Source: an uncultured Bacteroidales bacterium (GTDB lineage Bacteria > Bacteroidota > Bacteroidia > Bacteroidales > VadinHA17). From it: DNA of 64,000 bases. Shown here piece by piece: positions 20,373-64,000 of the stretch. A program made the position numbers and the translations under genes. The notes beneath the pieces are model-generated. The model was not told where the DNA came from. It worked only from the letters and a program-made list of their open reading frames with translations, and did no database searches. Within the stretch, counting starts at the first letter, position 1. Each line of letters begins with the position of its first letter. The stretch lies in assembly GCA_963772705.1 (NCBI GenBank), contig CAVYYH010000005.1, forward strand, positions 218,939 through 282,938, given 5' to 3'.

Positions 20373-20373
20373 T

Positions 20374-20429
20374 CTGCTCCTTGCTCACTGCTCCTCTGCT
20401 CCTCTGCTCCTCGCTCCTTGCTCCCTGCC
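20374..20429. repeat. tandem CTGCTCC/TTGCTCC heptamers filling the whole spacer between lysS and the downstream gene
   Basis: About 8 units read directly. This is the reverse complement of the GGAGCAG/GGAGCAA units at 27290-27338. Confidence 0.85.
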
Positions 20430-21950
20430 TAAAATTTGCCTGCTTCCGGCTTCATCTGCGGGAAGAAAAGTACATCCTGTATCGAGGGCTGGTTTGTCAT
20501 GAACATGGTCAGCCTGTCAATGCCTATCCCCATTCCTGAGGTGGGAGGCATACCATATTCGAGAGCCCTCACGAAATCCATATCGATAAACATAGCCTCA
20601 TCGTCTCCCTTCTCTGAGAGACGCAGCTGCTCCTGGAAGCGGTCGAGCTGATCAATCGGATCATTAAGTTCTGAGTATGCATTTGCCACCTCCTTGCCGT
20701 TCACCAGCAGCTCAAACCTCTCGGTGAGCCCTTCCTTGCTGCGGTGCTTCTTGGTAAGCGGTGATGTCTCCTGAGGGTAGTCAATGATAAACGTAGGTTG
20801 TATGAAGTGATGTTCACACTTCTCTCCGAAGATCAGATCAATCAGTTTTCCCTTGCCCATTGATGGCGAGTTGCCTATTTCAAGCCTGTCACACTCGCTG
20901 CGCAGCTCCTCCTCACTCATTCCGTTGATGTCAATGCCTGCATATTCCCTTATCGCATCAGTCATCGATACTCGTCTGTATGGACGCGCGTAATCGATAA
21001 CATGTTCTCCCAAAGGCACTTTGGTTGTGCCGTGAAGATCGGTTGCAACCTTCTCAAGAATCTGCTCGGTGAACTCCATCATCCAGTTGTAGTCTTTGTA
21101 GGCTACATAGATCTCCATCACTGTGAATTCCGGGTTATGGGTGCGGTCCATCCCCTCGTTCCGAAAATCCTTTGCGAACTCATATACACCGTCATAGCCT
21201 CCGACGATCAGCCTTTTCAGGTAGAGCTCATCTGCTATGCGAAGGTAGAGAGGCATGTCAAGTGCGTTATGATGAGTGATGAAAGGACGTGCAGCGGCTC
21301 CTCCCGGGATCGCCTGAAGCACCGGTGTCTCAACCTCAAGATATCCCCTGGCATCAAAGAGCTCACGCATCGACTTCATTATCTGCGTGCGCTTACGGAA
21401 GACCTCCCGCACCTCAGGATTGACTATAAGATCTACGTAGCGCTGGCGGTAACGCATCTCAGGGATCTGTCACAGCGTCATAAATGACACCGTCTTTTTC
21501 CTTGACGATCGGAAGTGGTCTCAGCGACTTGCTGAGCAGCGTCAGTTCGGTCACATGAAGGGTTATCTCTCCCATCTGTGTCCTGAAAACAAACCCCTTT
21601 ACGCCGATGATATCACCTATGTCAAGGAGTCTCTTGAAAAGTGTGTTATACTGTGTTTTATCCTCTCCGGGGCAGAGGTCGTCACGGCGTACATATATCT
21701 GTATCCGACCGGAAGAGTCCATCAGCTCGGCAAAAGAGGCGTTGCCCATTATACGGCGGCTCATGATGCGCCCTGCCAGGCAGACAGCCTGGTAGTTCTT
21801 CTTCTCATCGCTGAAGCCGGCAAGTATCTCTGCTGCCGAAGCATCTACCGGATACATGGCTGCCGGATATGGGTCTATGCCCAGCTTCCTTATCTCGTCA
21901 AGAGACTGCCTGCGTATCTGTTCCTGTTCGCTCAGGTGGTTGTTTGTCAT
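20429..21950 (-). pseudogene. lysS: lysyl-tRNA synthetase (class II), reading frame broken once (+1) at 21459-21464
   Basis: The N-terminal OB/anticodon-binding ORF (21459-21950) ends '...AVTDP*'. The catalytic ORF (20429-21457) starts '[11 protein letters not shown]'. Skipping one base in GAT CCC TGA GAT G restores '[11 protein letters not shown]'. Confidence 0.9.
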
Positions 21951-21986: not shown

Positions 21987-22094
21987 GGCAGCAGGCAATA
22001 GGTCAGGTGTCAGAAGACATAAGACGGAAGACCGGGGACTTGTAATCTGAAGGTGTACCCTTTGCCCCACGCTCTATGCCCCTTGCCCCCCTGC
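21987..22094. repeat. degenerate short-repeat block (GGCAGCAGGC, AGACGGA-type, CCCCTTGCCCC-type)
   Basis: Read directly. Shares the unit types GAAGACG and CCCTTGC with 27276-27540 and 63605-63673. Confidence 0.6.
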
Positions 22095-22095
22095 A

Positions 22096-23907: not shown

Positions 23908-24816
23908 ATGCCGGGTAACAGGAGATTGCCATTATGGCTTAAGATGCAGAGGGCCAGCGGGGAGAATTACACCATGGTAAAGCGACTGGTGGAGGAGAAC
24001 CGCCTCCATACGATCTGCACCAGCGGTAACTGCCCTAACATAGGTGAGTGCTGGAATGCCGGCACTGCAACACTGATGATACTGGGAGACATATGCACCC
24101 GCTCATGTAAATTCTGCGGTACGGCAAGCGGTCACCCCCTGCCACCTGACCCCGATGAGCCTGAAAGGGTGGCGTCAGCGGTAAAAACAATGGGGCTGAA
24201 ACACTGTGTCATCACCTCGGTTGACCGTGATGACCTGCCTGACGGCGGGGCACATCACTGGGCTGAAACGATACACCGCATAAAGAAGGCTAACAATAAG
24301 GTTACAATTGAGACCCTGATACCTGATTTCAGGGGAGATTTTTCGGCCGTTGACCTTGTCATTGACGCCGGACCGGATGTCATCTCCCATAACATAGAAA
24401 CGGTGAAAAGACTCACTCCCCTGATAAGGTCCGTGGCTAAATATGATGTCAGCCTCAGTGTTCTGCGGCATATCTCTTCAAGAGGGATGGTCGCCAAGTC
24501 AGGGCTGATGCTTGGACTGGGGGAGACAAGGGAAGAGGTTATGGAGTCATTGCATGACCTTCATGCAGCCGGATGCAGCATTGTAACACTGGGGCAATAC
24601 CTTGCACCTTCACTTAATCATATGCCTGTGGTTGAGTATGTCACTCCGGAGGTGTTTGAAGAGTACAGGCTCAGGGCGCTGGAGACAGGTTTCAGGTTTG
24701 TCGAAAGCAGCCCCCTTGTCAGAAGCTCGTTTCATGCGGAGAAACATGTTGGCAGGGAGCATGGAGCATGGAGCATGGACAGGGGGTACATAACATGGAG
24801 AAGGCTTCAAATCTGA
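23908..24816 (+). CDS. lipA: lipoyl synthase
   Basis: 'CTSGNCPNIGEC' plus radical-SAM 'CTRSCKFC'. The C-terminus after 'SSFHAEKHV' is extended by about 20 codons that read through the (GGAGCAT)3 repeat. Confidence 0.92.
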   Translation: MPGNRRLPLWLKMQRASGENYTMVKRLVEENRLHTICTSGNCPNIGECWNAGTATLMILGDICTRSCKFCGTASGHPLPPDPDEPERVASAVKTMGLKHCVITSVDRDDLPDGGAHHWAETIHRIKKANNKVTIETLIPDFRGDFSAVDLVIDAGPDVISHNIETVKRLTPLIRSVAKYDVSLSVLRHISSRGMVAKSGLMLGLGETREEVMESLHDLHAAGCSIVTLGQYLAPSLNHMPVVEYVTPEVFEEYRLRALETGFRFVESSPLVRSSFHAEKHVGREHGAWSMDRGYITWRRLQI

Positions 24817-24864
24817 TGCCCCATGATCCAAGCCCCATGCCCCAAGCCCCAAGCCCCAAGCCCC
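24756..24864. repeat. (GGAGCAT)3 and (CCCCAWG)5 heptamer arrays spanning the lipA/lipB junction
   Basis: Read directly. Five C4 tracts with 3-nt loops lie at 24833-24864. Confidence 0.9.
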
Positions 24865-25564: not shown

Positions 25565-27274
25565 ATGGAAAAAAGGTGGCTCTTAAGAGAGAGGGGCGAC
25601 GAGTCTGTCGTCACGACCCTGGCGACAGAGATGGGTGTGCCTGTCCCTGTTGCCAATCTCATGGTGCAGCGTGGCATCACTACAAAAAACCAGGCTGAAG
25701 ATTTTTTTAATCCCTCGCTGAAATCCCTGCATGATCCTTTTCTTATGAAGGACATGAACAGGGCAGTTGACCGTATCTCTACGGCTATTTCACGCAATGA
25801 GAAGATACTGGTATACGGCGATTATGATGTCGACGGCACTACTGCCGTGGCAATGCTCTATTCCTTCCTCAGGGAGAGACATACAAGCCTGGACTACTAT
25901 ATACCTGACAGGTATCACGAAGGCTATGGGCTCTCACTGAAAGGGATTGACTATGCTGCTTCTGGCAACTGCAGGCTGATCATTGCTCTCGACTGCGGTA
26001 TCAAGGCGGTTGACAAGGTTAAGTATGCCAGGTCAAAAGACATAGATGTCATCATATGTGATCATCATCTTCCCGGTGACGAGATACCCGCTGCAACAGC
26101 CGTGCTTGACCCGAAGCAGCCCGGATGCAACTATCCCTATAAGGAACTGTCAGGCTGCGGTGTAGGATTTAAGCTCATACAGGCCTATTGCCAGTTGCAC
26201 AGTATCCCGTTTGAAAAGATATTCCCGTACCTTGACCTTGTGGCGGTAAGTATCGGGTCTGACATCGTCCCCATGAACGGAGAAAACAGGGTGCTGTCAT
26301 ACTTCGGTCTGAAGCAGCTGAATGAGTCGCCGCGTCTGGGGATAAAGAAAATAATCGATAAGGCGAAGATCCGCATGCCCCTCTCCATTGAAGATATCGT
26401 TTTCCGTATAGGACCGCGTATCAACGCTGCAGGAAGGATGGAGTCAGGCAGCAAGGCTGTGGAGCTTCTGGTATCGCAGGATGCGCAGGCCGCCCTGACA
26501 ATCTGTGACGCCATTGACCGCAGCAACGATGACAGACGCAAGAAGGACACTGAGATAACGTCGGAGGCACGCCGTATGGTCAGCGAAGATGAACGGATGG
26601 GAAACAACCGTACCACCGTCCTCTTTCATCAGGGGTGGCATAAGGGTGTCATCGGCATTGTTGCCTCAAGACTCATTGAGACATACTATCGTCCGACTAT
26701 CATTCTTACCGAGTCAAAGGATGGCTTTGCCACCGGCTCGGCAAGAAGCGTCCCAGGGTATGATCTGTACCAGGCTATCGAATCGTGTTCTGACCTGCTT
26801 GAAAGCTTCGGAGGACATATGTTCGCCGCAGGGCTTACACTCAAGCAGGCGAACCTCCCGATGTTCCGGGAAAGGTTTGAGAAATTTGTAAGTGACACTA
26901 TCAAGGAAGAACACCTTGTCCCATCGGTCAACGTTGATGAAGAGATACCACTTGAGGATGTGACCTGGGACCTCCTGAAATACCTGGAACGGTTTCAGCC
27001 CTTCGGCCCTGACAATATGGCTCCGGTCTTTGTCTCAAGGAGGGTGAAGACACTCACCTGCCAGCCGGTGGGTAACAATGGCACCCATCTCAAACTGAGC
27101 TTTGCCCGCAATAACATGGAACCTGTCGGAGCAATTGCTTTCGGTCAGGCCGACACCATGGAAATCTTCAGAGAGGAAGGGGGGGTGGTAGACATAGCCT
27201 ATTCAATTGAGATGAATGATTTTAAGGGGCGGAGCACCGTGCAGCTCAATATCAAGGATATCAAGGGAGCATAA
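25565..27274 (+). CDS. recJ: single-stranded-DNA-specific exonuclease RecJ
   Basis: DHH motifs 'GDYDVDGTT', 'ICDHHLP'; DHHA1 'GGHMFAAG'. Confidence 0.92.
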   Translation: MEKRWLLRERGDESVVTTLATEMGVPVPVANLMVQRGITTKNQAEDFFNPSLKSLHDPFLMKDMNRAVDRISTAISRNEKILVYGDYDVDGTTAVAMLYSFLRERHTSLDYYIPDRYHEGYGLSLKGIDYAASGNCRLIIALDCGIKAVDKVKYARSKDIDVIICDHHLPGDEIPAATAVLDPKQPGCNYPYKELSGCGVGFKLIQAYCQLHSIPFEKIFPYLDLVAVSIGSDIVPMNGENRVLSYFGLKQLNESPRLGIKKIIDKAKIRMPLSIEDIVFRIGPRINAAGRMESGSKAVELLVSQDAQAALTICDAIDRSNDDRRKKDTEITSEARRMVSEDERMGNNRTTVLFHQGWHKGVIGIVASRLIETYYRPTIILTESKDGFATGSARSVPGYDLYQAIESCSDLLESFGGHMFAAGLTLKQANLPMFRERFEKFVSDTIKEEHLVPSVNVDEEIPLEDVTWDLLKYLERFQPFGPDNMAPVFVSRRVKTLTCQPVGNNGTHLKLSFARNNMEPVGAIAFGQADTMEIFREEGGVVDIAYSIEMNDFKGRSTVQLNIKDIKGA

Positions 27275-27275
27275 A

Positions 27276-27540
27276 GCAGGGGCAAGGGCAGGGAGCAGGG
27301 AGCAAGGAGCAGGGAGCAAGGAGCAGGGAGCAAGGAGGATTTGCGATTTGCGATTTGCGAATTGACCGCCGAAGCCGGTCCCTGAGCCGGTCCCTAAGCC
27401 GGACCCTGAGCCGGTCCCTGAGCCTGTCGAAGGGTGTCGAAGGGGTCGAAGGATCGCAGGGGGTGGCTGCGCTGCATAAGGCTCTGTGACTGAAGACGGA
27501 AGACGGAGGAAGAATACCGAATACCGATTACCGAATACCC
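27276..27540. repeat. mosaic of six different short tandem-repeat arrays
   Basis: Six arrays read directly: GGAGCAG/GGAGCAA (27276-27338), GATTTGC x3 (27339-27364), GCCGGTCCCTGA x4 (27374-27424), GTCGAAGG x3 (27426-27452), GAAGACG x3 (27492-27512), AATACCG x4 (27513-27540). Confidence 0.95.
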
Positions 27541-27657
27541 TCTTAATGGGTGGTGGAAAAAAACACATCTTCACTCTTTACCTCTTGATTTTTCCCCGCC
27601 CAACACTTGACTTTCATTCATCCCTGTCATAACTTTACTTTGTAATTATGTCCGGTA

Positions 27658-28473
27658 ATGCTGCGTTGTATTGCGGTGGTATTGCTGTTTGTGGAAGCTG
27701 CCGCCGGTATAAATGCCGGCGAACCTGTTTATGTGCCCCACGGAGCCGGTGAGCTGGGTATGGCATTTGCATCCTCCGCTTTTCCGGGTCACTGGAGCTG
27801 TTTTCATAACCAGGCACTGCTGGCAAAGCAAGTGACAACAAGCGCTGCAGTAGCCCTCGAAACACGCTATATGCTTTCCTCATTGTCATCGAAGGCACTC
27901 AGCATTACCGTTGCCGGCAACATGGCCCCGCTCGGCATCATCCTGACCCACTATGGCAACGGAGACTATTACCGCATCTTTTCCGGGGCGGGAAGCGCAG
28001 TGAAAATAACAGACGGCCTGGCCCTGGGGATTCAGGTGGATTATATAACGGAAAGGAGTGTCGGAGACTACAGGGACCAGTCACATATAACATTTGAAGC
28101 AGGAGCCATAATGGACATCGCATCTGATGTGACAGTCGGACTGCACATCCTCAATCCTCTCAATTCTCTGAATTCAATCCCTTCGGCAGTCAATGCAGGT
28201 ATTGCCTGGCGACAGTCTGACGATCTGTGTATTGCTGCTGAACTAAACAAAGTGACAGCTGAGCCACTCTCATTTCACGCAGGGATAGACTGGAATATCA
28301 TGGATAAACTGGTACTCCGGTCAGGGTACATGAGCTCACCCTCTTCCTTTGCTGTCGGATCAGGATTCAGATCAGGCAAGATGCAGGTTGACGCAGGATT
28401 TCTGATTAACAGTGTTACTGGAATAACCTCTTCTGTATCATTTATATGGACCATCGGCGGGAAAGAGGGCTGA
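27658..28473 (+). CDS. small outer-membrane beta-barrel protein, PorQ/PorV-like (tentative)
   Basis: Signal-like N-terminus, alternating beta-strand pattern, 'GAGELGMAFA' opening typical of that family. No search was possible. Confidence 0.45.
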   Translation: MLRCIAVVLLFVEAAAGINAGEPVYVPHGAGELGMAFASSAFPGHWSCFHNQALLAKQVTTSAAVALETRYMLSSLSSKALSITVAGNMAPLGIILTHYGNGDYYRIFSGAGSAVKITDGLALGIQVDYITERSVGDYRDQSHITFEAGAIMDIASDVTVGLHILNPLNSLNSIPSAVNAGIAWRQSDDLCIAAELNKVTAEPLSFHAGIDWNIMDKLVLRSGYMSSPSSFAVGSGFRSGKMQVDAGFLINSVTGITSSVSFIWTIGGKEG

Positions 28474-30417: not shown

Positions 30418-30427
30418 TAGGCAGGAG
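30418..30427. repeat. left arm of a perfect 10-bp inverted repeat (TAGGCAGGAG)
   Basis: Its reverse complement CTCCTGCCTA is at 30924-30933. Both arms are embedded in GCAGGAG/GCAGTAG-type short repeats. Confidence 0.7.
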
Positions 30428-30470
30428 CAAGAGGCAGCAGGCGAAGGGCTGATCATGTAATAACAATTGG

Positions 30471-30790
30471 ATGGACATGAACAGAATTCATTCGAAACTG
30501 TTAGAATCAAAAAGATGTATGGAATGGTTAAAGATGTATGAATATGCAAACGTGGAAAGACAGCATAGAGATCTGAGACGCTTTTGGCAGCTGATCCGGC
30601 CGATGAAAGAAGGTATTTCAAGTTTGCAGAGCAGCTGCGTACTACTGCAATGAGCATTACAAACAATATTGCAGAAGGCTACGGCCGTTTTCATACACGG
30701 AGTATATGCGAGGTTCCTCCAGTATAGCAGAAGGTCAGCTTTTAAATGTACCAATATACTGTGCCTCTATAATCGACCAGCGAGCTAATT
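30471..30790 (+). pseudogene. degraded four-helix-bundle protein gene (23S rRNA intervening-sequence protein family)
   Basis: Three frames together give 'SKRCMEWLKMYEYAN', then 'ERRYFKFAEQLRTTAMSITNNIAEGYGRFHT', then 'FLQYSRRSAFKCTNILCL'. The 'NIAEGxGR' core is diagnostic. There are at least 2 frame breaks and internal stops. Confidence 0.5.
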
Positions 30791-30923
30791 GATGATATAA
30801 CCTGACAGGATCATCTTACGAGACTTGCAATTGTGAAGAAGATGAGGAAAAATTAATGTCTAATAGCAGACTCTCTTAGGGTAGACAAAAGTGTAAATTA
30901 CCGCTACTGTCTTTACTTTTTGC

Positions 30924-30933
30924 CTCCTGCCTA
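30924..30933. repeat. right arm of the 10-bp inverted repeat (CTCCTGCCTA)
   Basis: See 30418-30427. Confidence 0.7.
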
Positions 30934-30944
30934 CTGCCTTGAGA

Positions 30945-63149: not shown

Positions 63150-63223
63150 AGTCCCATAGCTCAGTTGGTTAGAGCGCTACACTGATAATGTAGAGGTCCC
63201 CAGTTCAACTCTGGGTGGGACTA
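63150..63223 (+). tRNA. tRNA-Ile (anticodon GAT)
   Basis: Hand-folded 74-nt cloverleaf: acceptor AGTCCCA/TGGGACT, anticodon loop CT-GAT-AA, T-loop TTCAACT. No encoded CCA. Confidence 0.93.
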
Positions 63224-63298
63224 CCGGGATTTTCGATTGTCGATTGTCGAATTGCGATTTAAATCGCAAATTGCAAATTGCAAATCGCAAATTACATC
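63224..63298. repeat. inter-tRNA spacer built from TCGATTG and GCGATTT/AAATCGC heptamers with a central palindrome
   Basis: 'TCGATTGTCGATTGTCGAATTGCGATTT|AAATCGCAAATTGCAAATTGCAAATCGCAAATT' read directly. Confidence 0.85.
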
Positions 63299-63372
63299 GG
63301 GGAATTAGCTCAGTTGGCCAGAGCACCTGCCTTGCACGCAGGGGGTCAAGGGTTCGACTCCCTTATTCTCCA
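63299..63372 (+). tRNA. tRNA-Ala (anticodon TGC)
   Basis: 74-nt cloverleaf: acceptor GGGGAAT/ATTCTCC with the G3:U70 identity pair, anticodon loop CT-TGC-AC, T-loop TTCGACT. Confidence 0.93.
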
Positions 63373-63376
63373 CCTT

Positions 63377-63426
63377 CGCCCGCCATAGCTCCGAATTCAT
63401 AAGGAGCGACGGCGGGTTTTTCTTTT
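63377..63426 (+). terminator. rho-independent terminator after tRNA-Ala
   Basis: CCCGCC...GCTCC-loop-GGAGC...GGCGGG compound hairpin followed by TTTTTCTTTT. Confidence 0.7.
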
Positions 63427-63469
63427 ATAAGCAGAACTGGTTTGAATAGGTCGGGTGGGCTTTGGCGGG

Positions 63470-63673
63470 CAAATCGCAAATTGCAAATCGCAAATCGCAC
63501 ATTCTCCTTTATTCGCTCCGGAATGTCCTGCGGTCTTGCAGTCTTGCAGTCCTGCGGTCATGCAGTCCTGCGGTCCACACTACTGCCTACTGCCTACTGC
63601 CTTTCCCCATGCCCCTTGCTCCCTGCTCCTTGCTCCCTGCCCCTTGCCCCTTGCCCCTGCCCCCTGCCCCCGC
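63470..63673. repeat. second mosaic of short tandem-repeat arrays
   Basis: Four arrays: GCAAATC x4 (63470-63500), GTCCTGCG/GTCTTGCA 8-mers x6 (63525-63576), TACTGCC x3 (63581-63601), CCCTTGC/TCCCTGC-type block (63605-63673). Confidence 0.95.
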
Positions 63674-63751: not shown

Positions 63752-64000
63752 ATGGCAAGCATTATCCCTGGTTACGAGTATGACATCTTCATAAGCTATC
63801 GTCAGAAAGACAACAAATATGACGGCTGGGTCACTGAGTTCGTCGATAATCTGAAAAGAGAACTAGACGCAACTTTCAAGGAAGATATCTCAATTTATTT
63901 TGATGAAAACCCTTCCGACGGGCTGCTTGAGATCCATAATGTGGATAAAAGCCTGGAGGCAAAGCTTAAATCACTGATTTTTATTCCGGTGATCTCTCAG
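63752..64000 (+). CDS. TIR-like domain protein, N-terminal 83 codons (3' end lies outside the window)
   Basis: Not in the ORF track because no stop is reached. ATG at 63752 gives 'MASIIPGYEYDIFISYRQKDNKYDGWVTEFVDNLKRELD...SLIFIPVISQ'. The 'YDIFISYRxxD' opening is typical of bacterial TIR domains. Confidence 0.65.
   Translation, partial: MASIIPGYEYDIFISYRQKDNKYDGWVTEFVDNLKRELDATFKEDISIYFDENPSDGLLEIHNVDKSLEAKLKSLIFIPVISQ

Follow-up and report, generated by a model that had tools for sequence, protein, structure and literature searches.

What is a string of six different tandem-repeat arrays doing directly behind a stop codon, and how did it come to be there? The locus that raises this question lies in a 64,000-nt stretch of DNA from an uncultured Bacteroidales lineage (contig CAVYYH010000005.1; the whole stretch is called the window below, and all coordinates are those of the window). 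The recJ gene, the last in an apparent co-directional lipA-lipB-recJ run, ends in a TAA codon at 27272-27274, and a 265-bp mosaic of repeats occupies 27275-27539. Our best explanation, which we hold at a probability of about 0.6, is that the mosaic is a simple sequence repeat (SSR) driven by slippage and would be the swollen remnant of an ancestral terminator that was itself built of arrays.

Six tandem arrays directly follow recJ

The original prediction for this locus described six different arrays placed back to back after the recJ stop codon, and Tandem Repeats Finder (TRF) bore this out (Table 1). Only two stretches of the mosaic are non-repetitive, a segment of 35 nt and a second gap of 8 nt at 27365-27372. 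Array 1 had been given about 4 copies, a count that fits the 14-mer super-unit GGAGCAGGGAGCAA (3.6 copies) into which the array can equally be read; counted in heptamers it has ~9. The 14-mer matches at 97% versus 85% for the 7-mer, indicating recent two-unit duplications, and the sense strand of this array is 86% purine. The same account held the units to be unrelated to one another. Not all of them are idiosyncratic, as GGAGCAR and GATTTGC recur at other loci of the window and in relatives. Its statement that the mosaic is not a simple microsatellite is true in the narrow sense of 1-6 nt units; the mosaic is a compound long-unit SSR.

There are a total of 11 period-7 arrays in the window, as compared to 0.22 per dinucleotide-preserving shuffle, and 36 versus 1 in 924 kb of other Bacteroidota loci. 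On a greedy map of the open reading frames (ORFs) of the window, the period-7 arrays are non-coding or reside at the extreme ends of ORFs. Two other classes of repeat had been set aside from the start, and rightly. Clustered regularly interspaced short palindromic repeats (CRISPR) consist of 23-50 nt repeats with unique spacers of similar length, whereas the units of the mosaic are 7-12 nt long and abut directly with no spacers. A miniature inverted-repeat transposable element (MITE) does not fit either: there are no inverted repeats in 27200-27700, and what recurs elsewhere is only the unit families, not the whole mosaic.

Table 1. Positions of the recJ mosaic, its surroundings and other array loci in the window.
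Feature	Coordinates	Strand	Description
recJ	25565..27274	+	single-stranded-DNA exonuclease; Pfam DHH, DHHA1, RecJ_OB
Array 1	27275..27337 (TRF 27278-27337)	+	AGGAGCA/GGAGCAG/GGAGCAA heptamers, 8.7 copies; TRF
Array 2	27338..27364	+	GATTTGC, 3.9 copies; TRF
Array 3	27373..27428	+	12-mer GCCGGTCCCTGA, 4.7 copies; TRF
Array 4	27425..27452	+	9/10-mer GTCGAAGG(G), 2.9 copies; TRF
Non-repetitive segment, 35 nt	27453..27487		
Array 5	27488..27507	+	GAAGACG, 2.9 copies; TRF
Array 6	27512..27539	+	GAATACC, 4.0 copies; TRF
Conserved non-repetitive block	27540..27606	+	~95% identical in window, L083, L082
Promoter-like block of downstream gene	27607..27650	+	TTGAC 27607-27611, TAACTT 27630-27635, TAATTATG 27643-27650
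Downstream lineage-specific gene	27658..28473	+	271 aa, no Pfam family, hydrophobic N-terminus
GGAGCAR array	20373..20428	-	fills whole 56-nt spacer from stop of aminoacyl-tRNA synthetase (aaRS) core ORF to next ATG
GGAGCAT and CCCCATG/CCCCAAG arrays	24752..24864	+	lipA/lipB junction; pair into hairpin, fold z = -5.0, no T-run
GATTGTC array and inverse (GCAAATT)	63228..63293	+	hairpin between tRNA-Ile and tRNA-Ala, fold z = -2.8
Second mosaic	63469..63670	+	GCAAATC, 4.4 copies; 8-mer GTCCTGCR, 6.5; CTACTGC, 3.3; CCTTGCC/CCCTGCT, 10.3

The arrays are real and differ by whole units between strains

Such a tract could be an artefact of assembly, or it could belong to a real gene for a repetitive peptide on the opposite strand. 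Short-read contigs often stop in the recJ spacer, and a 123-aa ORF on the minus strand spans the region. The arrays, however, are carried by three independent assemblies, which rules out an artefact. The antisense ORF is, as had been claimed for it, a mere translation of the arrays: it is of low complexity, matches no Pfam family, overlaps the 3' end of recJ, and would be shifted out of frame by the 7-nt indels between strains. For practical purposes this pair of alternatives is refuted.

Two Logan short-read contigs (run ERR10755939; L081 and L102) encode exactly the RecJ and the downstream protein of the window and represent the same strain. One stops at 27284 and the other starts at 27331, which puts the break exactly at both edges of the GGAGCAR array. 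Aligned with 27331-27657, the second contig exhibits 2 single-nucleotide differences and a 12-nt gap, exactly one 12-mer unit fewer. Two metagenome contigs from the Joint Genome Institute, L083 (92% protein identity) and L082 (95%), also share the mosaic with the window. The original prediction had proposed that absence of the arrays from independent assemblies, or lack of any other such locus in the genome, would speak against it. Neither is the case, as the Logan contig, L083 and L082 reproduce the arrays and the period-7 arrays of the window lie at six or more non-coding loci. A comparison of orthologous spacers for copy-number polymorphism, which it had also suggested, yielded unit-sized differences among the window, the Logan contig, L083 and L082.

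In an alignment of the window, L083 and L082, the 120 nt upstream of the start codon of the downstream gene are ~95% identical, whereas the array region shows indels of whole units and the gain or loss of entire arrays. The GGAGCAR units number ~9 in the window, ~2 in L083 and ~2.5 in L082, and the GATTTGC units ~4, ~3 and 5, respectively. GAAGACG, with 2.9 copies in the window, has one unit fewer in L083 (a gap of exactly 7 nt) and is absent from L082; GAATACC has 4.0 copies in the window and 4 in L083 and is likewise absent from L082. Both relatives have a TCAGACC(C) array that the window lacks, and both have the 12-mer of array 3 at ~3.5-4.5 copies. In L082, array 4 is expanded and diverged to ~7 units, with an expanded GNCGAAGG array, and the unique 35-nt segment, kept in L083, is missing. 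Differences of whole units and whole arrays beside a flank that is ~95% identical are the signature of slippage in unit register. With these data we regard it as almost certain that the mosaic is a real, non-coding and hypervariable SSR.

Many of the short-read contigs at this locus (L081, L084-L086, L090-L092, L097, L102) have an end within the spacer that separates recJ from the downstream gene. Such breaks are systematic: the arrays fragment short-read assemblies of this Bacteroidales clade at predictable places, and in gene calls they give rise to spurious ORFs and to false extensions at N- and C-termini.

Orthologous spacers hold an array-built hairpin and a U-run

The closest RecJ loci all belong to uncultured Bacteroidales or Bacteroidota metagenome-assembled genomes (MAGs), the nearest being on contigs L014 (94% identity), L001 (87%) and L002 (85%); among Bacteroidales MAGs, RecJ orthologues range from 52 to 94% identity. 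On L087, L092, L094-L098, L001, L002 and L014, the spacer from the recJ stop codon to the TTGAC motif ahead of the downstream gene is a single long hairpin (fold z-scores of -4.2 to -10.6). A purine-rich heptamer array makes up the 5' arm and the reverse complement of that array the 3' arm, with 7-9 U directly after it. The unit families of the hairpin vary among orthologues (AGGCAAT/AGGCAGT, GGGGCAT and GGAGCAR) and the arms nevertheless stay complementary, partly via G.U pairs, so that the structure is conserved and the sequence is not.

This layout, in which a stop codon is followed by a hairpin with a U-run and then by a promoter, is that of an intrinsic terminator. A U-run lies 3' of the stem in 11 of the 13 orthologous hairpins, and it is this placement, together with the purine-first polarity of the arms, that would give the terminator reading its direction. 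In 177 kb of close-clade DNA, a sample centered on the recJ locus, no heptamer-built terminator other than that of the recJ spacer was flagged.

The left arm of the hairpin of L014, which has a U-run, belongs to the same GGAGCAR family as array 1 of the window. On L093 and L091 the arms and the T-run are intact and the loop carries new AACCGAT, ACAGACA and GATTGCAC arrays; we read these two loci as intermediates between the simple hairpin and the mosaic. The recJ locus and its orthologues would then form an evolutionary series that leads from a simple hairpin with a U-run, through arrays in the loop, to a 265-bp mosaic without a 3' arm.

One arm and a vestigial T-run remain in the window

Of the two arms of the hairpin, the window, L083 and L082 retain only the left one. 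We read array 1 as this arm, the orphaned 5' side of the stem of an ancestral terminator hairpin. The conserved block that follows the arrays holds an A7 run (27557-27563), a pyrimidine-rich stretch where the right arm used to be, and a TTTTT at 27589-27593. This TTTTT falls in the alignment column of the T7-9 run of 17 orthologues, just upstream of the invariant TTGAC.

Orthologues of the downstream gene were found on 20 metagenome contigs. The TTGAC, TAAnTT and TAATTATG columns are invariant in these 20 orthologues, which share only 55-95% protein identity, and from this conservation we read 27607-27650 as the putative promoter of the downstream gene. A scan with the sigma-70 consensus gave no promoter call at 27607-27650, and Bacteroidetes promoters deviate from that consensus, with TTTG at -33 and TAnnTTTG at -7. 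The sequence GTAATTATGTC, also invariant in the 20 orthologues, contains an ATG (27648-27650) that lies 10 nt upstream of the start codon at 27658 and out of frame with it. It may be part of the promoter, by way of the -7-like TAATTATG, or an alternative or upstream start.

Could the mosaic still serve recJ as a terminator, an insulator or an RNA-processing site, whether by long-range pairing over the 250-nt insert, by a G-rich or other non-B structure such as a G-quadruplex, or as a Rho-dependent site? The TTTTT has been kept at the ancestral position of the T-run, and in the minimum-free-energy fold the G-rich array on the 5' side is paired with the pyrimidine-rich stretch on the 3' side. 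The RNA fold of the whole region, however, is no better than that of shuffles (z = -0.30), and the duplex of array 1 with the pre-promoter stretch (z = -0.57) is equalled by 28% of random genomic 52-mers, on which we reject a surviving long-range stem. No terminator-like site was called in the mosaic region, and the stem-loop that in the orthologues runs directly into a U-run after the stop codon is lost here. As for a G-quadruplex, the G4Hunter score reaches 1.72 locally (27442) and, in sister arrays, -2.76 at 63.6 kb (minus strand) and -2.44 at 24.8 kb, and the G-rich heptamer repeats of Xanthomonas and Nostoc have been studied as G-quadruplex formers (PMC4692102). G-quadruplex-forming heptamer repeats of the GGGAATC/GGGGAYT type would have four or more G-runs of at least 3 in register across the array. 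G-runs are missing from GATTTGC, GAATACC, GAAGACG and the 12-mer, four of the six arrays here, and from most arrays in general, so that only some qualify and the G-quadruplex is unlikely as a unifying explanation. The sense strand is also G-rich, unlike Rho utilization (rut) sites, which are C-rich and not G-rich. All told, a terminator that still works in the window is improbable. Rfam at the gathering score matches only 2 tRNAs in the window, and at E <= 1 nothing in 27150-27750; on this and on the fold z-score of the region we reject a structured RNA.

The variable copy number also invites the idea of a contingency locus, at which slippage in the arrays would reversibly switch or tune the downstream 271-aa gene, whose product looks like a surface or secreted protein. 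Unit-sized differences separate the strains and occur even in two assemblies of a single strain, the hydrophobic N-terminus predicted for the downstream protein would suit such a role, and intergenic SSRs are known to drive phase variation in other bacteria (PMC11868660, PMC12721329). The placement is not that of a phase-variable SSR, however, which would lie in an ORF, between promoter elements or in a 5' untranslated region (UTR): the arrays are outside the ORF and end 67 nt upstream of the TTGAC in the invariant TTGAC..TAAnTT block, the putative promoter. Similar arrays, moreover, follow housekeeping genes (aaRS, lipA, tRNAs) across the window, and with about one locus in every 10 kb they greatly outnumber what is typical of contingency genes. 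We consider phase variation very unlikely.

Array loci elsewhere share a polarity and unit families

In addition to the mosaic, arrays are found in the window at 20373-20428, 22011-22095, 24752-24864, 30419-30447 with 30903-30939, 63228-63293 and 63469-63670. They reside only in spacers that follow the 3' end of a gene, and none of the six divergent (- +) spacers has one. The array directly after a stop codon is 75-86% purine on the sense strand in 5 of 5 cases (recJ, the aaRS core, an aminotransferase, lipA and a 656-aa gene). Where, at any of the loci, two arrays of the same family lie no more than 600 nt apart, 8 such pairs are inverted and 1 is direct, and in 8 of 8 inverted pairs the purine-rich member comes first. 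The palindromic organization of the arrays is therefore general, termination probably being only one of its uses. The unit families recur as well: GATTTGC occurs three times in the window (63261-63293 and 63469-63499 among them), GGAGCAR at 27.3, 20.4 and 63.6 kb and twice on L014, and AGGCAGT in the window, on L001 and on the distant L061.

These regularities bear on the possibility that the arrays are binding platforms, in which each heptamer would bind one single-stranded nucleic acid-binding protein of the OB-fold or S1 type (similar to cold-shock proteins) or another regulator that reads repeats, whether on the 3' UTR of recJ or on the DNA ahead of the next promoter, so that copy number would tune mRNA stability or promoter activity. 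Recurrence of unit families at unlinked loci and in distant genomes would be expected of such platforms, as would the strict purine-first polarity relative to transcription and the way the arrays stop just upstream of the conserved promoter block. CspB has been reported to bind direct repeats of heptamers with one protein per unit, and TAACTGA repeats have been proposed as regulator sites (PMC4679880). A platform of this kind is hard to reconcile with six unrelated units in one spacer, with whole arrays that come and go among strains whose flanking proteins are 92-95% identical, and with orthologues that place entirely different units at the same site. The arrays also lie upstream of the putative promoter and not in the 5' UTR of the next gene, and no candidate binding protein was identified. 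A binding platform therefore seems unlikely to us.

Several of the other loci have features of their own. The array at 20373-20428 ends in GGAGCAGA directly before the ATG, each of its units has a Shine-Dalgarno-like GGAG, and the genes on its two sides are co-directional; the phylum Bacteroidetes generally makes little use of Shine-Dalgarno sequences. The class II aaRS next to it (Lys/Asn/Asp type, 20429-21950, minus strand) is divided between two ORFs with 1 nt between them, one for the OB anticodon domain (21459-21950) and one for the catalytic core (20429-21457), and is either a frameshift pseudogene or the product of an indel error in the assembly. At the lipA/lipB junction, the lipA ORF extends 21 codons beyond the conserved ...SSFHAEKHV end, through the GGAGCAT array, and the only in-frame ATGs of lipB lie inside the CCCCATG/CCCCAAG array. 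The arrays there thus supply stop and start codons and low-complexity tails.

The tRNA-Ile(GAT) and tRNA-Ala(TGC) genes at 63150-63425, a pair that usually resides in the spacer of an rRNA operon, stand alone with no rRNA in the window, and an array hairpin (63229-63292) lies between them. A classical terminator is found 3' of the pair (stem at 63375-63420, then a T-run). The second mosaic stops directly at a promoter-like block, TTGACTTT..TAAATTTG. The ORF that follows it (63752-64000) starts with MASIIPGYEYDIFISYRQKDN, which we take to resemble the N-terminus of a TIR domain; the 83 residues available before the end of the window gave no Pfam match.

Small PF05635 genes are found between a purine-rich heptamer array and its reverse complement at three places (L014:4034-4562, L084:2921-3449 and window 30419-30939). 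The family comprises the 23S-rRNA-intervening-sequence protein (IVP) and Avd-like four-helix bundles, and the match on L014 has E = 3e-21; the copy in the window looks degraded or frameshifted. The flanks of the three genes pair with z-scores of -8.0, -3.4 and -2.4, respectively, with no U-run. There are five IVP-like matches in 1.08 Mb, each with an array no more than 250 nt away. Such an arrangement recalls the original intervening sequence (IVS) of rRNA, in which the gene sits in the loop of a stem that is cut by RNase III.

How the mosaic may have arisen

We propose that the mosaic is non-coding, hypermutable long-unit SSR DNA, mostly of 7-nt units, whose arrays would grow and shrink by whole units through replication slippage. 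It would occupy what in this clade was ancestrally the recJ terminator site, a heptamer-array hairpin with a U-run, followed by the next gene's promoter. Within the window's sub-lineage, new arrays of unrelated units would have entered the loop of the hairpin, so that five further arrays now fill the former loop. The 5' arm would have expanded to ~9 units and the 3' arm decayed until only the TTTTT was left. Its present role may be only that of a length-variable 3' region of recJ, or of a spacer ahead of a conserved promoter, and the mosaic most likely has no sequence-specific function of its own.

A number of observations weigh against parts of this explanation. Among the orthologous hairpins, the sense strand folds no better than the antisense strand (7 of 13, p = 0.95; the L092 hairpin was trimmed too short in this comparison and its energies are not meaningful), and so G.U asymmetry lends no support to selection at the RNA level. 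The hairpins could instead be selected or generated as DNA palindromes. The case for termination is one of architecture only, the stems of 15-30 bp are long for intrinsic terminators, and similar array hairpins without a T-run occur inside operons and around IVP genes, which excludes termination as a general role for the arrays. Why the unit families turn up again at unlinked loci and in distant genomes is not explained by slippage alone, nor is why the purine-rich array always comes first after the stop codon (5/5, 8/8). Most arrays stand in one and the same order in the window, L083 and L082, which could reflect shared ancestry or a weak constraint. Finally, neutrality cannot be shown from sequence.

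Slippage alone does not account for several regularities: a register of 7 nt, pairs of inverted arrays, a fixed polarity, unit families that recur and an association with Avd/IVP-like genes. They would fit a broader reading, which we put forward tentatively and regard as doubtful. Gene-end hairpins of this Bacteroidales clade, perhaps Bacteroidota-wide, would be modular, built of 7-nt units with the purine-rich array first, and their arms would co-evolve by concerted gain, loss and replacement of units. Hairpins with a U-run would terminate transcription, and those without one would act as processing or stability stems in operons and between tRNAs. Their loops would be nurseries for new arrays and landing sites for small genes that encode Avd- or 23S-IVS-protein-like products. 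If this were true, it would call for a dedicated mechanism or selection in a 7-nt register and not for generic slippage, and the heptamer bias of bacterial SSRs, long without an explanation, would gain a concrete and testable functional context.

Comparison with known repeat systems

An excess of 7-nt repeats in bacterial intergenic DNA has been known since the short tandemly repeated repetitive (STRR) sequences (1990) and an SSR survey of 2007, with no accepted cause or function. As that survey is summarized in later papers (Mrazek 2007 via PMC4679880, PMC4692102), heptanucleotide long SSRs (LSSRs) are over-represented in intergenic regions across many bacteria, differ in length from one close relative to another and have units of 5-11 nt with a sharp preference for 7, for which polymerase slippage in a 7-nt register was proposed; in these summaries, the original survey did not highlight Bacteroidales.

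The mosaic behaves like an STRR or LSSR locus and has every LSSR property that was checked. Its six arrays are head-to-tail repeats, for which LSSRs show at least 3 copies; they have 2.9-8.7 copies and periods of 7, 7, 12, 9-10, 7 and 7, the 12-mer being just outside the 5-11 nt range. They exceed the expectation from composition, and units that are not a multiple of 3 are confined to non-coding DNA, with all period-7 arrays outside long ORFs or at their extreme ends. Copy number is unstable between close relatives, as the 7- and 12-nt gaps and the gain and loss of arrays among the window, the Logan contig, L083 and L082 attest. Unlike typical LSSRs, the mosaic joins several unrelated units in one spacer, is tied to the 3' ends of genes and is purine-first, and relatives of the window exhibit inverted array pairs followed by a U-run.

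The original prediction saw the closest analogy in the cyanobacterial STRRs. As a functional analogy between intergenic tandem heptamers this is fair; the mosaic is not, however, a member of that class. STRR1 (CCCCA(A/G)T), STRR2 (TT(G/T)GTCA) and STRR3 (CAACAGT) of Calothrix and Nostoc, as well as the G-rich GGGGA(C/T)T and GGGAATC repeats, vary between close relatives (PMC4692102). Likewise, the arrays studied here are intergenic tandem heptamers with many loci per genome, differ in length and sequence between strains, and include some inverted pairs. The differences are that the host belongs to another phylum, that STRR loci usually have one unit type where the mosaic has six, and that G-quadruplex potential is not general among the arrays of the window. 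All units of the mosaic have at least 2 mismatches to STRR1-3, TAACTGA, GGGAATC and GGGGAYT in any rotation and on either strand. The single case with 1 mismatch to an STRR is CCCCAAG at 24.8 kb, within chance for 99 comparisons. These mismatches, and a Bacteroidales host in place of a cyanobacterium, rule out STRR membership.

Whether such mosaics had been described for this lineage was left open in the original prediction. They have been noted in passing for Bacteroidetes, and those of Bacteroidales MAGs were not previously characterized. Intergenic regions of Gramella, Aequorivita and Elizabethkingia contain "larger assemblages of heptamer repeats", with contigs that end in repeats (MacGregor 2015, PMC4679880); close relatives have shorter spacers without arrays, and translational regulation or gene rearrangement was proposed as their role. 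These assemblages belong to the same phylum and also set several different heptamer arrays side by side in a spacer. They differ in that they were found via TAACTGA (at least 3 mismatches from the units of the mosaic), in that their hosts are Flavobacteriia and not Bacteroidales, and in that no hairpin or terminator organization was described there. Repeat-built terminator hairpins, accretion of arrays in loops and purine-first polarity had no prior description in the searchable literature, subscription journals being outside its scope. The class is known, and its repeat-built terminator context and purine-first polarity appear to be undescribed.

The orthologous hairpins resemble intrinsic terminators in having a stable G+C-rich hairpin, followed at once by 7-9 U, between the stop codon and the next promoter. 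They depart from them in that their stems, 15-30 bp long, consist of 7-nt modules in tandem with mismatches at regular intervals. In the window itself the hairpin has been lost. The proposed series of recJ spacers ties heptamer arrays to the 3' ends of genes, to a palindromic organization and to a fixed polarity relative to transcription, which narrows the hypotheses on such repeats and makes them testable.

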